A stretch of 48,398 nucleotides of DNA, from assembly GCA_016181145.1 (NCBI GenBank), contig JACOZW010000023.1:1-48398 (forward strand), written 5' to 3'. The DNA comes from Candidatus Yanofskybacteria bacterium. Its GTDB lineage: Bacteria > Patescibacteriota > Minisyncoccia > 2-02-FULL-40-12 > GWA2-44-9. Position numbers and translations under genes: made by a program. The notes under the pieces are model-generated. The model was not told the DNA's origin and did not search any database. It worked only from the letters and a program-made list of their open reading frames with translations. Positions 3,070 through 19,429 of the stretch are shown here, one piece after another. Numbering within the stretch: the first letter of the stretch is position 1; each line of letters begins with the position of its first letter.

Positions 3070-4533
3070 CTACTGTTTCGGCCGCATTAACGGAAAAATT
3101 TGAGTTTCCCTAATGGGTTTATTCATTAAAAAGCTAAACAATCGCTCGCTAAAACCGTGGCCTGCGGTAGGAGGCATACCGTATTCCAGAGCTTCAATAA
3201 AATCATAATCTGCCATTTGAGCTTCTTGGTCGCCCGACTTTCGCATCTTTTCCTGAGCTTCAAATCGCTCTCTCTGATCAATCGGATCATTAAGCTCGCT
3301 ATATCCCTGACCCACTTCCGAACCGGCAATAATAAAATGAAAACGCTCGGTAATATCCGGATTTTTAGCCGAAGCCTTAGCAAGAGGCGAGATTATTTTT
3401 GGTTCATTAATAAGAATAGCTGGTCCGCCTATATTTTTGCGGCAATATTTCCATAGAGAATCAATAAACCGTCCACGATTTTCAACAGCATATTCAACCT
3501 TAAGATCGTCCAGTTTCTTTTGTATCTCTTTATCGGTTGCCTTCCAGATGTCGATATTTGTCTGTTTCCTAATCTCTTCGGTATAATCTATCAGTGGCCA
3601 GTCAGATGCAAGATCTATATCAAAACCATTTATCTTGAACTGAAGCGTTCCGAAAGTTTTTTGAGCAATATAGCGATAGCATTCTTTCAAAAACTTATAC
3701 ATATCTTCGTAGTCAGCATAAGCCCAATAAGCTTCGCATTGAGTGTAGTCCTGCAAATGTTCGGCCGACATTCCTTCATTGCGGAAAATCCTGCCGATTT
3801 CGAATGTTTTTTCAAATCCAGCAACCATCAATTTTTTCTGCCAAAGCTCTCCGGCTGAGATACGAAGATAAACGTCCATATCCAATGCGTCATGATGGGT
3901 CTTGAAAGGGTTTGCATCCGCTCCGCCGACAGTAGTCTCTAAGACCGGAGTTTCAACTTCCAAAAATCCGTTTTTGACATGAAATTCTCTGACCGCATTC
4001 CAGAAAATAGCCCTCTTTTCGACAATTTGTCTTGATTCCGGATTAAAAATAAAATCAAGATACCTCTTCCTTAAACGATCTTCTGTATCCTGCAGGCCAT
4101 GCCACTTTTCCGGCAAAGGAAGAAGGGCTTTAGTCAAAATCCTGAAATCTTTTACTTCGAGAGTTTTTTCTTCTTTTTTGGTTTTAAATAAAGTACCGCT
4201 TATTTCAACAAAATCTCCGATATCACTAAGATCGGAAAAATTAGAAAAAATTTCTTTTCCTACGATATCTTCTTTTATAAATCCCTGAATTTTACCGCTA
4301 CCGTCTCGGAGATCAAAGAATATCGCTCCACCCATATCTCTTCGGGCCATTACTCGTCCGGCTAGGGTAAGTTTCTCTTTTGATTCAGAGAATTTATCAA
4401 AGTTTTCCAATGCTCCGGCGATCGCATGCGTCCGTCCCGAAACAGCCGGATACGGATCAAAACCGGCTTTCCTAAGCTTTTCTAATTTATCTACTTTAGT
4501 TTTACGGATTTCATCTAAGGACATATTCGCCAA
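3070..4533 (-). CDS. lysS: lysyl-tRNA synthetase, class II
   Basis: 487 aa. N-terminal OB-fold region, IFRNEGMSAEH (motif 2 region) and GMPPTAGHGFSERL (motif 3). Confidence 0.95.
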   Translation of the reverse strand: MANMSLDEIRKTKVDKLEKLRKAGFDPYPAVSGRTHAIAGALENFDKFSESKEKLTLAGRVMARRDMGGAIFFDLRDGSGKIQGFIKEDIVGKEIFSNFSDLSDIGDFVEISGTLFKTKKEEKTLEVKDFRILTKALLPLPEKWHGLQDTEDRLRKRYLDFIFNPESRQIVEKRAIFWNAVREFHVKNGFLEVETPVLETTVGGADANPFKTHHDALDMDVYLRISAGELWQKKLMVAGFEKTFEIGRIFRNEGMSAEHLQDYTQCEAYWAYADYEDMYKFLKECYRYIAQKTFGTLQFKINGFDIDLASDWPLIDYTEEIRKQTNIDIWKATDKEIQKKLDDLKVEYAVENRGRFIDSLWKYCRKNIGGPAILINEPKIISPLAKASAKNPDITERFHFIIAGSEVGQGYSELNDPIDQRERFEAQEKMRKSGDQEAQMADYDFIEALEYGMPPTAGHGFSERLFSFLMNKPIRETQIFPLMRPKQ

Positions 4534-14144: not shown

Positions 14145-15014
14145 ATGACTATTTACGGTCTTGGAATTATAGCAGCTTTCGGAGCGTTAATTTTTTGGGG
14201 AGTTGGGGATTTTCTGATTCAAAGATCTGTTCGTCGACTTGGCGACTGGGAACCTCTTTTTATCATCTCTCTCTTCGGCTCAATAATTATAACTCCTTTT
14301 GTATGGCATGATCTCCAGATTATTACTACTTCTGGTAATTTTATCCTATTAATCACAGTCGCGGTAACTTTTCTATGCGCCTCGCTTCTTGAATTTCAAG
14401 GATATAAAATCGGTAAGTTGGCGGTTATAGAGCCAATCCAAGTACTAGAAATACCAATTAGCGCCTTCCTAGCTTTTTTCTTATTATATGAGAGGCCAAC
14501 AAGTATGGTAATTCTACTTGTTCTAATCCTAATATTCGGCCTTGTTCTGATATCAGTCAAACGTCATCATTTTTTAAAAAAGTCTTGGCTGGAAAAAGGG
14601 ATCATATTTGCTATTGCTGCGTCATTTTTCATGGGTATTACTAACTTCCTAGTCGCTTATTCTTCTCGACTCACAAACCCGCTTATCGCAATTTGGTTTT
14701 TCAATATTTTTATTACATTGACCACCTTTATCTATCTCACTGCAATGGGTAAGATTCATAACTTATTTAAAGATTTTACCTCTAATCCAAAACTGATGAC
14801 CGCGGTCTGCGTTTTTGATAATTTAGCTTGGATCTCATTTGCATTTGCCTCAAGCGTAGTGCCGGTTATAACTGCACTTGCTATATCCGAAAGCTATATT
14901 GTATTAGCATCAATCCTAGGAATTTTCTACAACAATGAACGTCTTGCGCGCTATCAAATCGCAGGTCTTTTTATTGTCATTCCTAATGCTATAATTTTAG
15001 CAATCATAGCTTGA
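14145..15014 (+). CDS. EamA/DMT-family transporter
   Basis: 289 aa with about 10 hydrophobic segments in two similar halves, typical of drug/metabolite transporters. Confidence 0.7.
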   Translation: MTIYGLGIIAAFGALIFWGVGDFLIQRSVRRLGDWEPLFIISLFGSIIITPFVWHDLQIITTSGNFILLITVAVTFLCASLLEFQGYKIGKLAVIEPIQVLEIPISAFLAFFLLYERPTSMVILLVLILIFGLVLISVKRHHFLKKSWLEKGIIFAIAASFFMGITNFLVAYSSRLTNPLIAIWFFNIFITLTTFIYLTAMGKIHNLFKDFTSNPKLMTAVCVFDNLAWISFAFASSVVPVITALAISESYIVLASILGIFYNNERLARYQIAGLFIVIPNAIILAIIA

Positions 15015-15031: not shown

Positions 15032-15060
15032 TTGACATATTATGGTTTATGGCTTATCAT
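15032..15060 (+). promoter_or_regulatory. sigma70-type promoter of ligase sub-operon 1
   Basis: TTGACA (15032-15037), 17-nt spacer, TATCAT (15055-15060). The ATG of the small ORF lies only 10 nt after the -10 box. Confidence 0.5.
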
Positions 15061-15069
15061 TGAGAAAAC

Positions 15070-15141
15070 ATGAATTTAAGACTTATAAATACAAATTGGC
15101 ATTATCACTCAACATTCTCTCGTGAAAGAGGGTTGAGTTAA
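15070..15141 (+). CDS. 23-codon aromatic-rich small ORF (MNLRLINTNWHYHSTFSRERGLS): leader peptide or precursor peptide
   Basis: Not in the ORF track. It is paralogous to the small ORF at 17052-17126, with synonymous differences at conserved residues. It would be near-leaderless and no SD is present. Confidence 0.4.
   Translation: MNLRLINTNWHYHSTFSRERGLS
15108..15137 (+). promoter_or_regulatory. hairpin 1 of a putative attenuator
   Basis: CTCAAC-a-TTCTCT [CGTGAA] AGAGGG-TTGAG. It starts at the last aromatic codon of the small ORF and ends 1 nt before its stop codon. Confidence 0.4.
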
Positions 15142-15173
15142 TGTCTCTATTTTCCAATTTTTGACATAAATTT

Positions 15174-15200
15174 AGCCCCCTCTCACGAGGGGGCTTCTTG
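15174..15200 (+). terminator. terminator-like hairpin upstream of ligase 1
   Basis: AGCCCCCTC-TCAC-GAGGGGGCT (9 bp) followed by TCTTGTTG. Its 5' arm CCCTCT can alternatively pair with AGAGGG of hairpin 1. Confidence 0.5.
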
Positions 15201-15239
15201 TTGCTCAAGAGGCTTAGTTCTTTTAACAGGGAGGTGTAG

Positions 15240-16157
15240 GTGGAAAGATTAGTTCGTTATTTCACGGAAGGGATAGAAAATCGACCCATTGCCAATACTA
15301 TAGGAGTAGAGGTTGAAACTTCGTTTATGATGGAACATGAGAATGGCAGTCCAATTACTGTCGCTCAATCTCAACTATTGATAGAAAGATTCCGTAGAGT
15401 TAAAGATTGGCGAATAACTAAAACGAAAGGAAATCTGATAGCAGAAATATCAGACGGCGCAAATAAACTATCTTACGAATTGGGTCGACAGAATCTCGAG
15501 CTTTCAATAGCGCCTGATACAAATAGTGCGGTGGCTGTTTCAAGGGCGATGAAACTTGCGGATGAACTAGGATCTGTTGCAAGTTATGTCTCCGATCCAG
15601 ATGCCCGCTTTTTATGGGAGGTGAGCGAACCGATAATTCATACTAATGAGGATCTACTTATGATTCCGGATGAACGAGATGCAACATGGCTTGAGCTTGA
15701 TGGCCGCCCCGCGCTAGAACTTCTTGCAAGGACATCGGCAGTTCAATTCACTATTTCCGTATCGCTGAAAGATGCAATCGAGTGTTTAAACAGATTAGGA
15801 GAAAAGATAGGATCGTTTCTAAAGGATTATCCACAAGAAGAAAATTGGCGGAGGTATATCAAAGAATCAAAAGCCGACTATCACGCGATGCGATATGGCG
15901 GCCCATTATTTTTCGATAGTATTGAAGATTATTGTAAAAAATTAATTAAGCACAATGTCGTCGTAGGCCCAGAACTCGTTCCCTATAATCAAGTGCGCGA
16001 TCTAGATATCCCTCTTTATCTGCGTTCTATCTGGTGGTATTTTCGCCTAAGACGCTACGAAAACACACTTTGCATAGAGGTTAGACCGTTGCCACGGCGC
16101 GATAGTAGAAAATTCAAAGAGCAATTTGATTTTGTAATGAATATCATGCAAAGCTAG
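15240..16157 (+). CDS. glutamate-cysteine-ligase family 2-like carboxylate-amine ligase, paralog 1 (divergent metal motif)
   Basis: GTG start 5 nt after GGGAGG. Motifs IGVEVETSF, ELGRQNLELSIAP and LCIEVRPLP are in family order. TSAVQFTIS replaces the GxHxH motif. Confidence 0.65.
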   Translation: MERLVRYFTEGIENRPIANTIGVEVETSFMMEHENGSPITVAQSQLLIERFRRVKDWRITKTKGNLIAEISDGANKLSYELGRQNLELSIAPDTNSAVAVSRAMKLADELGSVASYVSDPDARFLWEVSEPIIHTNEDLLMIPDERDATWLELDGRPALELLARTSAVQFTISVSLKDAIECLNRLGEKIGSFLKDYPQEENWRRYIKESKADYHAMRYGGPLFFDSIEDYCKKLIKHNVVVGPELVPYNQVRDLDIPLYLRSIWWYFRLRRYENTLCIEVRPLPRRDSRKFKEQFDFVMNIMQS

Positions 16158-16167
16158 AACACGCCAC

Positions 16168-16194
16168 GGGGAGATTCCCTTCTCCCCTCTTTTC
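16168..16194 (+). terminator. terminator/partial terminator between ligase 1 and the amidotransferase gene
   Basis: GGGGAGA-TTCCCT-TCTCCCC followed by TCTTTT. Confidence 0.55.
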
Positions 16195-16245: not shown

Positions 16246-17016
16246 ATGAAAAACAAAAACATAAAAATCCTTTTTCTCGATATCTTCACTGACAACGAAA
16301 AGTTCAGAAAAGAGCTTGAGAAAAAAGTTTATAACGGACGAAGTTTATCTGAGCATGTCAGAAAAGTTTTTGGATTGGATAAAAACCAATGGCTAACCCT
16401 AGATGCCTCTAAAGATATTTTTCCCGATAAATTTCTTAATGTTGATGCAGTAGTAATAAGCGGTTCATCTAAAGATCCGGTAAAGGGACAGGAGAAGAAA
16501 TGGATGCGCGATACTTATAAATTTATAAGAAAAGCGATTAAAAAAGATCTTCCTATTCTTGGTATTTGCGGAGGGTTGCAGTTTACAGTTAGGGCTTTAG
16601 GCGGAGAAATAATTTATAATCCTAACGGCAAAGAATTCGGGGCTATAACGGTAACTATCAAAAAATCTGACCCCCTATTCAATGGCTTGAAGAAAAATTT
16701 TATCATCCCATCAAATCACCAATGTATGGTCGGTAAATTTAATTCCAGCGCTAAGCTGTTGGCCAGCTCTAAAATGTGCTCGGTTCAAGCTCTAGCAATC
16801 GGCGACAAAATAAGATTAGTCCAATTCCACCCCGAAAGAACTAAAGAGCAGAATATGATTTTAGCAAAAATGTCTAAAGAGAATTTGGTCAGAGATGGAA
16901 TTATAAAAAACGAAAAAGAATATCCGAAATTTTTAGAATCCCTAAAAACCGATATGGGCGCCGGCAAAGTAATAATCAAAAATTTTCTGGATAACTTTGT
17001 TTACAAAATGAATTGA
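16246..17016 (+). CDS. class-I glutamine amidotransferase-like / gamma-glutamyl hydrolase-like protein
   Basis: Nucleophile elbow PILGICGGLQF and the His-Glu pair in VQFHPE. Confidence 0.8.
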   Translation: MKNKNIKILFLDIFTDNEKFRKELEKKVYNGRSLSEHVRKVFGLDKNQWLTLDASKDIFPDKFLNVDAVVISGSSKDPVKGQEKKWMRDTYKFIRKAIKKDLPILGICGGLQFTVRALGGEIIYNPNGKEFGAITVTIKKSDPLFNGLKKNFIIPSNHQCMVGKFNSSAKLLASSKMCSVQALAIGDKIRLVQFHPERTKEQNMILAKMSKENLVRDGIIKNEKEYPKFLESLKTDMGAGKVIIKNFLDNFVYKMN

Positions 17017-17041
17017 CTCATAAATTCAAAGGTGCTATAAT
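17013..17041 (+). promoter_or_regulatory. sigma70-type promoter of ligase sub-operon 2
   Basis: TTGACT (17013-17018, overlapping the preceding TGA stop), 17-nt spacer, TATAAT (17036-17041) with TGc upstream. An ATG follows 11 nt later. Confidence 0.55.
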
Positions 17042-17051
17042 TCACATAACA

Positions 17052-17126
17052 ATGAATAATTTATACAAAAACACTAATTTTTATTGGTTTACATATAACC
17101 TCTCTCGGGGAAGGTGTTTTTGTTAG
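17052..17126 (+). CDS. 24-codon aromatic-rich small ORF (MNNLYKNTNFYWFTYNLSRGRCFC): paralog of 15070-15141
   Basis: Not in the ORF track. It shares MN, NTN at codons 7-9, an aromatic block at codons 10-15 and SRxR with the first small ORF. It has the same promoter-to-ATG geometry. Confidence 0.4.
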   Translation: MNNLYKNTNFYWFTYNLSRGRCFC

Positions 17127-17152
17127 GCTAAACTCTCAGTAGCTAGCGACAT

Positions 17153-17180
17153 AAAAACCTCTTCCTCGGAAGAGGTTTTT
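17153..17180 (+). terminator. terminator-like hairpin upstream of ligase 2
   Basis: AAAAACCTCTTCC-TC-GGAAGAGGTTTTT, a 13-bp stem with a T5 tail abutting ATG 17181. Confidence 0.5.
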
Positions 17181-18011
17181 ATGTCTTCCGAACAGCTCTT
17201 TAACAAAAGGAGGGACGAGATGAAACCAGAAAATGAACTGAATTTATTTCTCGATAAAATCGTATTCAGGCCGGAAATGACCGGTTCAATAGGTATTGAA
17301 AGAGAACATTTTCTTGAAATCCATGCCGAAATTAATGATTGTCTGCCTTCTTTGTGTGTTCCTTACGCCGGATGGTTTTTAAGAAACATAAACGACGACA
17401 GGTGGACTTATGAATTATCGGCCTGCCAAGTTGAGTCAAGAACCAATCCCCAGATAGATCTTTCTGCTCTTAAGCTAGAACTCTATGAGAATCTGAATCT
17501 AAGTAATGCGACTGCGCAAAAAATGGGTATTTATCTGGTTAACCATGAAGTAGCAGATAGATTTATGCCGCTTGATGTCTATCCCGACCCGAGATATCTC
17601 GAAATCGTAAAGCGCATTTCCGAGGAAGAGCTGCGTGCAGCTTGTAGGGTAGCCGGAACCCATATTCACATCGGGGCCAGAGACATAAACCATGCAATTG
17701 CCATTAACAATTTACTTGCTCCGCGCATCGATGCTTTGTGCAGAATCAGCGACCACTCAAATGGAGAACGGCTCCATCTTTATAAAACAATGGCTAAAAA
17801 TTGGCAGCCGACCACATATGAAAGTCCGGAACATCTATTCGAGGTCGCAAAAACCGAAGGCTTTATCGATAATCCGAGAAACTGTTGGAAACTTATCAGA
17901 GTAAGCATTCACGGAACTATTGAATTAAGAATGTTTGGCGCGACCAATAGTATTGATGAAATATTGGAATGGGTTTCGTTTGTGAAATATCTCATCAAGG
18001 AGGCAATGTAA
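17181..18011 (+). CDS. glutamate-cysteine-ligase family 2-like carboxylate-amine ligase, paralog 2
   Basis: IGIEREHFL, ELSACQVESRTNP, AGTHIHIG and GTIELRMFG. The better start is probably ATG 17220, 5 nt after AAGGAGGG. Confidence 0.75.
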   Translation: MSSEQLFNKRRDEMKPENELNLFLDKIVFRPEMTGSIGIEREHFLEIHAEINDCLPSLCVPYAGWFLRNINDDRWTYELSACQVESRTNPQIDLSALKLELYENLNLSNATAQKMGIYLVNHEVADRFMPLDVYPDPRYLEIVKRISEEELRAACRVAGTHIHIGARDINHAIAINNLLAPRIDALCRISDHSNGERLHLYKTMAKNWQPTTYESPEHLFEVAKTEGFIDNPRNCWKLIRVSIHGTIELRMFGATNSIDEILEWVSFVKYLIKEAM

Positions 18012-19429
18012 TGTCACGACCGGATTCAAGTACCTCACTGCAAGCAGAAAAGGAGATGCTGGAAGCGTTCACTATCCAAACCCAAGAGCTGATAGCCTCG
18101 CAGGATAGATTTATCAAGGACAACTATGGCGTTAAAATAGGACTGGAATCGGAATTGGCAATTCACGGTAGGTTCGACAATACGGAATTGACTCAAAAAA
18201 GAGATGCAGTTATTGCTGATAATAAAGATTTTACAGATATTGAACTCGGAGCCAATCAGATAGAAATACGAACTCCTCCGCTGGATATCCTATCGAGTGA
18301 CGGGTTAGCCTCTCTGGATAATATATACAGAGCAAGATATAACGCAGTACTAGAGTCAGCTCGCAGGAATAAAGTAGGACTGCTCCGTATCGGCGCGAAT
18401 CCTTTCTTGCCAACGATAAATACGCCCAGAACAGATAAGCCTAAATATCGTTTAGTGCCCGATTTCTATAATCAGCACAGAGATCCAAGACTCGATACAT
18501 TCATCGGTCTTGGCAAAAGCAGAATTGATATTGGCGATGCATCTGTCGTATCCCTATTTCAATCTTTTCAGGTTAATCTAGAAGCAAAATCTCTAGACGA
18601 TGCCTGCGAAAAAATGAATAGGTCCCTAGCTATTGCTCCCTATCTTCTGGCTTTTTCCGGTAATGCCAGATATCTGAGCCATCAGGACACCAAAATCCAA
18701 GATACGCGGATGATGAGCTGGGAAATCAGCCATGACACCAGAACTTTCTATGATACCAAGTTACAAGATTTGAGAATTATATCTTGGGAAAGAAGCTTTG
18801 ATGTAAGGCCGGAAAAAAACGAAAACTGGTCTAATGAATTAAGAATCGGCCTACCGAGCAGGTATTTTAGAAATATGACCGATTACTTTCAAAGAGCCGG
18901 AACATTTCCATTTATCTTATACGCACCGGAATCTGCATTGGCAATTTCAATAGGCATGACCTGGTTGGATGCCAGAACTAAATTCATAGGAGATTCGGCG
19001 ATAGTTGAACTGCGACTGCCATCCACTCAGCCCACAATAGAAGAAGAGATGTTATTGACCCTCCTCTATATCGGCAGACTCCACTATGCCCAGACAAACC
19101 AAGAACAAATACTGCCTATAAATATGGTCAGAGAAAACAGGCTTTCGGCCATGTTATATGGATTCAAAAAGTCGATGTGGTTCTTAAGTGAAAACGGCGC
19201 CCCGATAAAACTACCGACCAAAATAGGATTGGCAAGAGAACTGGAGCTGGCTATAATCGGCTTAAATCAGTTGGGATTATCGACGGCTATAGATAAAGAG
19301 TTGCTCGATGCTGTCCTCAAAACAGACTCTCCCTCAGATAGATTAGCGAGATTTCTAGATCCAATTAATGAAGCATCAATTACTGACATGGAAGATGCTC
19401 TATCGGAAACAAAAATGTTAATTTCATAA
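18011..19429 (+). CDS. glutamate-cysteine-ligase-like carboxylate-amine ligase, paralog 3 (long form)
   Basis: ATG 18011 lies 7 nt after AAGGAGG and overlaps the upstream stop (TAATG). Motifs IGLESELAI, ELGANQIEIRTPP and AIVELRLPS are present. The track start at 17969 is rejected. Confidence 0.75.
   Translation: MSRPDSSTSLQAEKEMLEAFTIQTQELIASQDRFIKDNYGVKIGLESELAIHGRFDNTELTQKRDAVIADNKDFTDIELGANQIEIRTPPLDILSSDGLASLDNIYRARYNAVLESARRNKVGLLRIGANPFLPTINTPRTDKPKYRLVPDFYNQHRDPRLDTFIGLGKSRIDIGDASVVSLFQSFQVNLEAKSLDDACEKMNRSLAIAPYLLAFSGNARYLSHQDTKIQDTRMMSWEISHDTRTFYDTKLQDLRIISWERSFDVRPEKNENWSNELRIGLPSRYFRNMTDYFQRAGTFPFILYAPESALAISIGMTWLDARTKFIGDSAIVELRLPSTQPTIEEEMLLTLLYIGRLHYAQTNQEQILPINMVRENRLSAMLYGFKKSMWFLSENGAPIKLPTKIGLARELELAIIGLNQLGLSTAIDKELLDAVLKTDSPSDRLARFLDPINEASITDMEDALSETKMLIS

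Follow-up and report, generated by a model that had tools for sequence, protein, structure and literature searches.

Small reading frames upstream of GCS2/YbdK-like ligase genes in a Candidatus Yanofskybacteria contig as probable leader peptides of transcription attenuators with Trp and His codons

Two ligase genes of a Candidatus Yanofskybacteria bacterium, lig1 and lig2, are each preceded by a small open reading frame (ORF) of 23 or 24 codons and an intrinsic terminator. The DNA analyzed here, referred to as the window, is the whole stretch of 48,398 nucleotides (contig JACOZW010000023.1, positions 1 to 48,398, forward strand). The ORF upstream of lig2, at 17052-17126, is very likely the leader peptide of a ribosome-mediated transcription attenuator that senses charged tRNA-Trp, to judge from its sequence and those of its relatives. 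The charging of tRNA-Phe and tRNA-Tyr is probably sensed as well. The original prediction had noticed both ORFs and left two readings, duplicated attenuator leaders or short precursor peptides for the adjacent ligases. The attenuator reading is supported by two observations: each ORF has its end within one strand of an antiterminator, a helix that cannot coexist with the terminator and whose pairing shows compensatory changes, and the regulatory codons track the downstream gene, Trp for lig2 and His for lig1. The elements of the lig2 unit, hereafter leader 2, are the following.

17013-17041, + strand: sigma-70-type promoter, TTGACT-17-TATAAT, 11/12 match, with a TG-extended -10 box
17052-17126, + strand: leader ORF 2, 24 codons, MNNLYKNTNFYWFTYNLSRGRCFC followed by the stop codon at 17124-17126
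17079-17096, + strand: regulatory codons TTT TAT TGG TTT ACA TAT (F-Y-W-F-T-Y), with the Trp codon at 17085-17087
17098-17115, + strand: weak hairpin of segments 1 and 2 inside leader ORF 2, its 3' arm shared with the antiterminator
17106-17123, + strand: antiterminator 5' strand (segment 2), CGGGGAAGGTGTTTTTGT, ending 1 nt before the stop codon
17151-17168, + strand: antiterminator 3' strand (segment 3), overlapping the 5' arm and loop of the terminator
17153-17185, + strand: intrinsic terminator, AAAAACCTCTTC-CTCG-GAAGAGGTTTTT and tail, with an 8-bp G+C core, an A/U extension and a T-run
17220-18011, + strand: lig2, a minimal GCS2/YbdK-fold carboxylate-amine ligase, first gene under leader 2

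We propose that transcription would start 3-5 nt before the ATG and that the ORF would be translated without a Shine-Dalgarno (SD) sequence. With charged tRNA scarce, the ribosome would stall at the F-Y-W-F-T-Y codons and leave the 5' strand at 17106-17123 free to pair with 17151-17168. The resulting long antiterminator would consume the 5' arm of the terminator at 17153-17180 and permit read-through into lig2 and the following gene, lig3. When the ribosome instead reaches the stop codon, the 5' strand would be covered, the terminator would form and transcription would end. The leader of lig1 (ORF at 15070-15141) would apply the same logic to lig1 and a glutamine amidotransferase (GATase) gene by means of W-H-Y-H codons.

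Folding and covariation both support alternative RNA structures in leader 2. For comparison, 56 genomic loci that contain a lig2 homologue and 80 metagenomic loci that contain a lig1 homologue were collected; they are designated by L numbers below. When the 5' part was masked as by a stalled ribosome, 19 core-group sequences (of those shown, the ones that keep the ORF through segment 2) folded into the antiterminator with -16 to -33 kcal/mol. In L004, L007 and the leaders of divergent sequence (L019, L030, L033, L041 and L053, with L054 left out), the same mask gave a weaker helix, of -7 to -16 kcal/mol. With the ribosome mask placed at the stop codon, the terminator formed. In the alignment of 23 sequences, 88% of the antiterminator cells were paired, compared with 42-68% when the 3' partner was slid; eight pairs showed compensatory change, and 0/500 shuffles reached the covariation score. 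The terminator had 97.8% of its cells paired against 45-71% when slid, with three pairs changed on both sides and again 0/500 shuffles. At columns 45:112, a G-C to A-U swap in the antiterminator alters the peptide from SRGR to SRER, and the same C-to-U change is tolerated as a U·G pair in the terminator. The hairpin of segments 1 and 2 is weak throughout the family, at about -4 to -8 kcal/mol. Furthermore, L015, L030 and L054 have quite different sequences and the same layout of WW codons, hairpin and terminator. The geometry is common to both leaders of the window: the last regulatory codon lies 9-13 nt before the antiterminator strand, and the stop codon lies at the 3' end of that strand.

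The codon content of the lig2 leaders points to Trp. An ATG ORF with an in-frame TGG that ended 15-95 nt before the terminator was present at 23/23 loci with the terminator motif, as compared with 1.6 +/- 1.2 such ORFs (maximum 5) in dinucleotide shuffles of the same loci. Trp occurred in 31/31 lig2 leaders and made up 5.9% of their residues against a background of 0.9% in the proteins of the window. Many lig2-homologue loci have such a short upstream ATG ORF, in which nothing is constant except a cluster of aromatic codons that includes one or more for Trp; the clusters read FYWF, FTYWF, YFWF, NYWFYF, SFWYYF, IWW, SWW, NWW, AWW or WQW. The N-termini vary freely (MNNLYKNTN, MEQQKYT, MRLLLIAKK and MDIKTSLNN), and the tail after the cluster is variable in length and sequence. 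The original prediction had proposed a search of related genomes for micro-ORFs with a common N-terminus beside the ligases; the ORFs are there, all 31 with Trp in frame, and the N-terminus is not conserved.

Among close orthologues, the two halves of leader ORF 2 evolve differently. The 5' half contains both synonymous and non-synonymous changes, although TAT TGG TTT is invariant in the seven closest orthologues with an F-Y-W-F core (L003 has TTT TGG TTT). The 3' half, CTC TCT CGR GGA AGG TGT TTT TGA, is nucleotide-invariant save for one base in the hairpin loop, and the 3' halves of both leader ORFs follow this pattern, with only the loop base changing (CGG/CGA and CGT/CGC). In the closest relative, L137, the leader ORF is identical at 75/75 nt, as opposed to 92.9% identity in the lig2 DNA and 87.9% at its third codon positions. 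L137 also has a 22-nt insertion at about 210-232, directly after the terminator T-run (compare window 17180/17181), with the remaining leader almost identical.

The -10 box of leader 2 ends 10 nt before ATG 17052 and thus leaves a 5' untranslated region of only about 3-5 nt, that is, a near-leaderless transcript, and the ORF has no SD. In most relatives, the -10 box ends 9-12 nt (lig2 leaders) or 7 nt (lig1 leaders) upstream of the ATG, and an SD-like sequence is absent from 53/55 leaders, which argues that these leaders are leaderless or nearly so. For lig2 itself, a strong SD, AAAGGAGGG, lies at 17206-17214, and the homologues align from ATG 17220; ATG 17181 was rejected as a start because it lies inside the terminator tail and is not kept in L137. 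The promoter with its start just before ATG 17052, the 24-codon ORF, the terminator hairpin with its T-run at 17153-17180 and the SD and ATG of lig2 were all found where the original prediction had placed them, as was the small hairpin at about 17098-17115, though it is weak. As a separate observation, a conserved motif stands just after the terminator: TCTTCCG at 17184-17190 ("segment 5"), and YTTCCG at the same position in about 20 loci, compared by eye. It is the complement of CGGAAGA in the 3' arm of the terminator and, in part, of the SD sequence GGAGG. It could provide a further alternative pairing that affects lig2 translation.

The element upstream of lig1, leader 1, is built in the same manner.

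15032-15060, + strand: leader-1 promoter, TTGACA-17-TATCAT, ending 9 nt before the ATG
15070-15141, + strand: leader ORF 1, 23 codons, MNLRLINTNWHYHSTFSRERGLS followed by the stop codon at 15139-15141, with regulatory W-H-Y-H codons at 15097-15108
15122-15145, + strand: antiterminator 5' strand, spanning the stop codon
15163-15186, + strand: antiterminator 3' strand, overlapping the 5' arm and loop of the terminator
15174-15205, + strand: intrinsic terminator (also given as 15174-15195), AGCCCCCTC-TCAC-GAGGGGGCT with a T-rich tail

The leader-1 antiterminator was defined by folding four single sequences, all of which map to the same alignment columns; RNAalifold on the alignment of 46 sequences gave only the terminator core because of gaps. 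Across these 46 sequences, 87.9% of the antiterminator cells were paired against 41-51% when slid, 14 of 20 pairs changed in a compensatory manner (101 cells), and the covariation score was reached by 0/500 shuffles. His was present in 46/46 lig1 leaders, with at least two His codons in 37 of them, and amounted to 10% of the residues versus a background of 1.6%. Leader 1 is a member of an attenuator family that is rich in His codons elsewhere. A second hairpin, at 15191-15215, overlaps the T-tract of the leader-1 terminator, and its arms covary in the relatives (GCTTYC...GRAAGC).

At about 30 loci, the lig1 homologue is preceded by a 104-aa ORF of the Trp_repressor family, of the YerC/HisR type, followed by a spacer, a terminator and lig1.

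L094:3075-3389: 104-aa HisR-like gene, found also at L084, L089, L097, L116, L129 and about 25 more loci

The last 15 codons of this ORF, KLHHHNSIQSRRGLS and the stop codon, encode the His run and also supply the antiterminator strand of the lig1 homologue that follows, so that the attenuator leader is the tail of the repressor gene. These tail sequences align with leader 1 of the window across the structured part. The closest solved relatives of the 104-aa protein are 3frw, 3kor and 3g1c, the last being the HisR structure cited in PMC9413887, where the HisR (YerC, TrpR-family) repressor of Firmicutes is described.

Several loci depart from the common arrangement. In L112 and L119, lig1 and lig2 stand side by side behind a single leader, which contains Trp as well as His codons (SSWMMHHS and SWHWHP). 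In L013 and L014, lig1 is absent, and the pair of GATase gene and lig2 stands behind a W-W leader: about 170 nt upstream of the GATase gene, the leaders end in CRTYWYSWLSDGRLVFDLIN and CNYWATWLSDGKLVFDLVN, with a hairpin and then a terminator (AGCTTTCC-A9-GAAAGCT) downstream. L005 (about 4300-4440), L006 and L010 have a hydrophobic 37-aa ORF upstream of the GATase gene that ends in HPLW[NS]WPWYS[KR]K and contains three Trp codons; a plain terminator with no evident antiterminator lies downstream, and this ORF may be either a leader or a small protein. The leader ORFs at L004:5864-5911 and L007:1618-1662 are either decaying copies or follow a different logic.

Independent regulators link the lig2 homologues to Trp as well. 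T-box leaders were found at 14 lig2-homologue loci in other lineages of the candidate phyla radiation (CPR), scoring 95.6 bits in L026, at or above the Rfam cut-off, and 48 bits with an E value of 1e-9 in L050. Their specifier is UGG followed by a purine, in the standard loop (GAAAUUGGA) as well as in a variant with a short stem I. The variant occurs about 100-330 nt upstream of the lig2 homologues at L040, L043-L046, L048-L052 and L076, and is composed of a CCGG/CCGG lower helix, a UCCC..GGGA hairpin and, beside the lower helix, a YUGGG bulge on the 3' side. At about 48 bits against an Rfam cut-off of 93, such short-stem T-boxes would be missed by standard annotation. At the N of the UGGN bulge stands C or U, in agreement with G73 of the tRNA-Trp genes in the same loci. 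We rejected a Leu reading of the specifier (YUG) because UGG, a codon plus one purine beside the lower helix, is the invariant triplet, because N = C fits G73 of tRNA-Trp, and because tRNA-Trp genes are adjacent. The window itself contains no T-box, either as a UGGN bulge or as a specifier loop; these were found at homologous loci only. Moreover, a tRNA-Trp(CCA) gene adjoins the lig2 homologue in six unrelated loci.

L037:5778-5851, L043:7434-7505, L044:3984-4055, L046:1-73, L049:3968-4042 and L050:5416-5489: tRNA-Trp(CCA) genes

In L043, the T-box, lig2, an AstE/AspA-like gene and the tRNA-Trp gene follow each other on a single strand. A Trp_repressor-family gene lies directly upstream of the lig2 homologue in L029, L031 and L042 and, by sequence, in L025, L032 and L035, and L030 has a gene for a 327-aa class-I W/Y-type synthetase (trpS-like) after lig2.

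Several points weigh against attenuation as we describe it. Translation of the ORF, stalling, the response to amino acids and the need of translation for termination are deduced rather than drawn from experiment. The relatives are phylogenetically related, for which reason the shuffle counts are not to be read as probabilities. The leader sets were partly chosen by eye or by a regular expression for W and H, and the control for this selection, the 23 loci defined solely by the terminator motif, covered the Trp set only. In L004 and L007, two of the 23 relatives, the reading frame terminates just ahead of segment 1, and with -7 to -10 kcal/mol the antiterminator is weak. The free, unmasked leader-2 RNA folds into the antiterminator; we infer that translation causes termination and that, with so weak a hairpin of segments 1 and 2, the untranslated system would be "on", in contrast to the trp leader of E. 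coli. In the clade of the window itself, leader 1 keeps W-H-Y with a variable fourth residue and only one invariant His codon, and it would therefore be a mixed sensor and a less clear sensor of His. Finally, the targets are not known genes of Trp or His biosynthesis, transport or charging, so that the physiological logic is incomplete.

The likeness of the two ORFs bears on the other reading of the original prediction. It had called them paralogs at the peptide level, and the peptides do resemble each other beyond chance (BLOSUM62 global score of 28 against 6.9 +/- 6.7 for shuffles, p ~0.005; none of 213 other ATG ORFs of 18-30 aa in the window exceeded a score of 14). The nucleotide likeness of the two leaders was not significant, the local alignment being matched by 52/500 shuffles and that of the ORFs by 41/1000. 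What stands of the paralogy is the shared architecture and some peptide likeness; the leaders form two distinct families, of His and Trp type, and we do not claim a duplication. Nor does the use of different synonymous codons in the two ORFs reveal selection on the peptide, as had been supposed: across orthologues, S-R-x-R is without synonymous variation save for the loop base, which is an RNA-level signature. This C-terminus is nucleotide-invariant because it constitutes the antiterminator 5' strand, and the likeness is thus an RNA feature read in the same frame.

This likeness, together with a conserved aromatic core and the position of each ORF ahead of a ligase of the glutamine synthetase/glutamylcysteine synthetase (GS/GCS) fold, is what would favor precursors of ribosomally synthesized and post-translationally modified peptides (RiPPs) of the PqqA-like type, which the adjacent GCS2-like ligases would modify or extend while the hairpin sets only the stoichiometry. 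The GS/GCS fold includes the protein-tagging ligase PafA. The conservation nevertheless runs opposite to the conserved N-terminal recognition part and variable aromatic core that had been envisaged: the N-terminus is variable and offers no recognition sequence, whereas the aromatic Trp core is kept. The C-terminus varies in length and sequence, and its residues track RNA base-pair swaps, G becoming E where G-C becomes A-U. The equivalent of leader 1 at about 30 loci is the tail of a 104-aa helix-turn-helix protein of the TrpR/HisR family, and in place of any micro-ORF many lig2 homologues have a T-box, a gene of the TrpR type or one for tRNA-Trp. Searches against Pfam and NCBIfam around the leaders identified only GCS2/YbdK-like, GATase/C26 and EamA proteins, and no maturase, RRE, protease/leader peptidase or exporter domain was found nearby. 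The lack of an SD likewise speaks against a product peptide, and we regard precursor peptides as most improbable.

A nascent-peptide arrest as in TnaC, in which the peptide and free Trp would stall the ribosome, for instance at the stop codon, and regulation would depend on the peptide sequence instead of tRNA charging, is a second alternative. TnaC has 24 residues with Trp at position 12, as does leader peptide 2; TAT TGG TTT is nucleotide-invariant among close orthologues, and a ribosome arrested at the stop codon would favor the terminator as well, giving the same regulatory sign. Yet the aromatic residues differ in order and number among the leaders (YWF, FWF, FWYYF, WW, WQW), W alone is conserved with no Asp or Pro kept downstream, the terminators are intrinsic rather than of the Rho type, and the equivalent role elsewhere is taken by T-boxes, which read uncharged tRNA-Trp. 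Such an arrest therefore appears very unlikely to us. The strong nucleotide conservation of the 3' half, and of the CCUCUUCC and GGAAGAGG segments, which are unusually invariant across distant genomes, might be taken for a purely RNA-level element (such as a riboswitch or a protein- or small RNA-binding site) with an incidental reading frame. That every segment must pair with two partners explains this invariance, and an incidental frame hardly accounts for the ATG, frame, in-frame TGG and stop position being kept in 23/23 loci against 1.6 expected, or for the codon identity, W or H, following the downstream gene. Neither in the region nor in the window as a whole did any Rfam family reach its gathering cut-off; the best match among the leader families was Phe_leader with 18.6 bits against a cut-off of 55, which assigns the element to neither Trp_leader, His_leader nor Phe_leader. 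STnc130 (34.7 bits, cut-off 55) was discarded since the match arose from AU-rich sequence and the terminator. We give an RNA element of this kind very little weight, and attenuation by a translated leader remains our preferred explanation.

The genes under the two leaders and their neighbors are as follows.

14145-15014, + strand: EamA transporter gene, upstream of the leader-1 promoter
15240-16157, + strand: lig1, a remote lig2 paralogue, under leader 1
16246-17016, + strand: class-I glutamine amidotransferase (GATase)/peptidase C26-like gene, between the two units
18011-19429, + strand: lig3, a longer GCS2-like protein, co-oriented with lig2 (start uncertain: 17969 or 18011)

The proteins of the window had their top matches in metagenome-assembled genomes of Yanofskybacteria and other Parcubacteria, and the order lig1-GATase-lig2-lig3 recurs among the loci of relatives. 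The DNA between lig1 and the GATase gene contains a terminator-like hairpin at 16168-16187. Unrelated to the leaders, a gene for a 23S rRNA intervening-sequence protein (PF05635; 13100-13444, - strand) adjoins the ribosome recycling factor gene. By hhalign, lig1 and lig2 are remote paralogues (probability 85.7%, E 5.5e-6). Lig2 and lig3 match GCS2/YbdK weakly in sequence; lig1 has a weak profile-level match to plant glutamate-cysteine ligase and no match in Pfam or NCBIfam. The AlphaFold2 model of lig2, with a predicted local distance difference test score (pLDDT) of 95.4, is predicted to resemble YbdK most closely among PDB folds (1r8g, template modeling score 0.70), followed by plant glutamate-cysteine ligase and then glutamine synthetases. 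Sequence and fold searches with the ligases returned only YbdK, glutamate-cysteine ligase and glutamine synthetase, and no substrate could be assigned. In other lineages, the partner genes encode AstE/AspA-type deacylases, a gamma-glutamyl cyclotransferase-like protein and a C26-like GATase, enzyme types that all cleave N-acyl or gamma-glutamyl amides.

The proposed mechanism is textbook attenuation. The leaders resemble E. coli trpL and the Rfam Trp_leader, His_leader and Phe_leader families in having an ORF with the sensed codons and mutually exclusive antiterminator and terminator structures set by the position of the ribosome, and they share with trpL-type leaders the stop codon beside the antiterminator 5' strand. 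Unlike trpL-type leaders, leader 2 is leaderless or nearly so and lacks an SD, its hairpin of segments 1 and 2 is weak and its untranslated RNA is predicted to be "on"; moreover, the targets are orphan GCS2/YbdK-like ligases in Patescibacteria, and the leaders do not belong to any Rfam family by sequence. Mycobacterial polycysteine attenuators are likewise short leaderless ORFs that sense an amino acid through their codons, and the aroR leader of Corynebacterium is amino acid-sensing with mixed aromatic codons; both differ from leader 2 in phylum and targets. The lig1 leader family is akin to His-leader attenuators and the HisR system, with runs of His codons before the antiterminator and terminator and a YerC/HisR-type gene upstream in relatives. 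It departs from HisR of Firmicutes in that the His codons and antiterminator strand of the CPR relatives are the last 15 codons of the HisR-like gene and in that the target is a ligase, whereas leader 1 of the window differs from His leaders as a free-standing ORF of 23 codons with W-H-Y-H. The Trp T-boxes (RF00230) of other CPR lig2 homologues occupy the same position, have the same terminator/antiterminator output and respond to uncharged tRNA-Trp as the signal, but the window uses a translated leader instead of direct tRNA binding. Precursors of the PqqA type are of similar size (about 24 aa) and also stand before enzymes; the leaders here have neither a recognition sequence nor RiPP enzymes, and their C-terminus is constrained by the RNA. 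The new part is the organism group, the orphan targets and the three converging Trp/His regulators. We found no published description of leader-peptide attenuators or Trp T-boxes in Patescibacteria/CPR in a literature search that was incomplete, and this statement is accordingly provisional.

If a ligase and a hydrolase are induced together when His or Trp is limiting, a function in acquisition or salvage suggests itself as a speculation. We tentatively consider it possible, short of an even chance, that the patescibacterial GCS2/YbdK-like ligases and their partners (GATase/C26, AstE-AspA and gamma-glutamyl-cyclotransferase genes) are amino-acid-specific modules, lig1 for His and lig2 for Trp, which would be induced by uncharged tRNA through three interchangeable devices, namely the leaderless leader-peptide attenuator, the short-stem T-box and the TrpR/HisR-type repressor, and would serve an undescribed route of His and Trp acquisition, with the HisR-like gene doubling as a leader in part of the phylum. 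The use of a repressor gene's own C-terminal codons as an attenuator leader is an unusual coupling of two control layers. For annotation, such micro-ORFs should be marked as regulatory leaders and not as peptide products. The regulators link a widespread, unannotated CPR enzyme family to Trp in the case of lig2 and to His in the case of lig1, which leads to testable hypotheses on amino-acid supply. If the modules exist as outlined, these biosynthesis-poor symbionts would obtain, trap or salvage His and Trp by an undescribed route.

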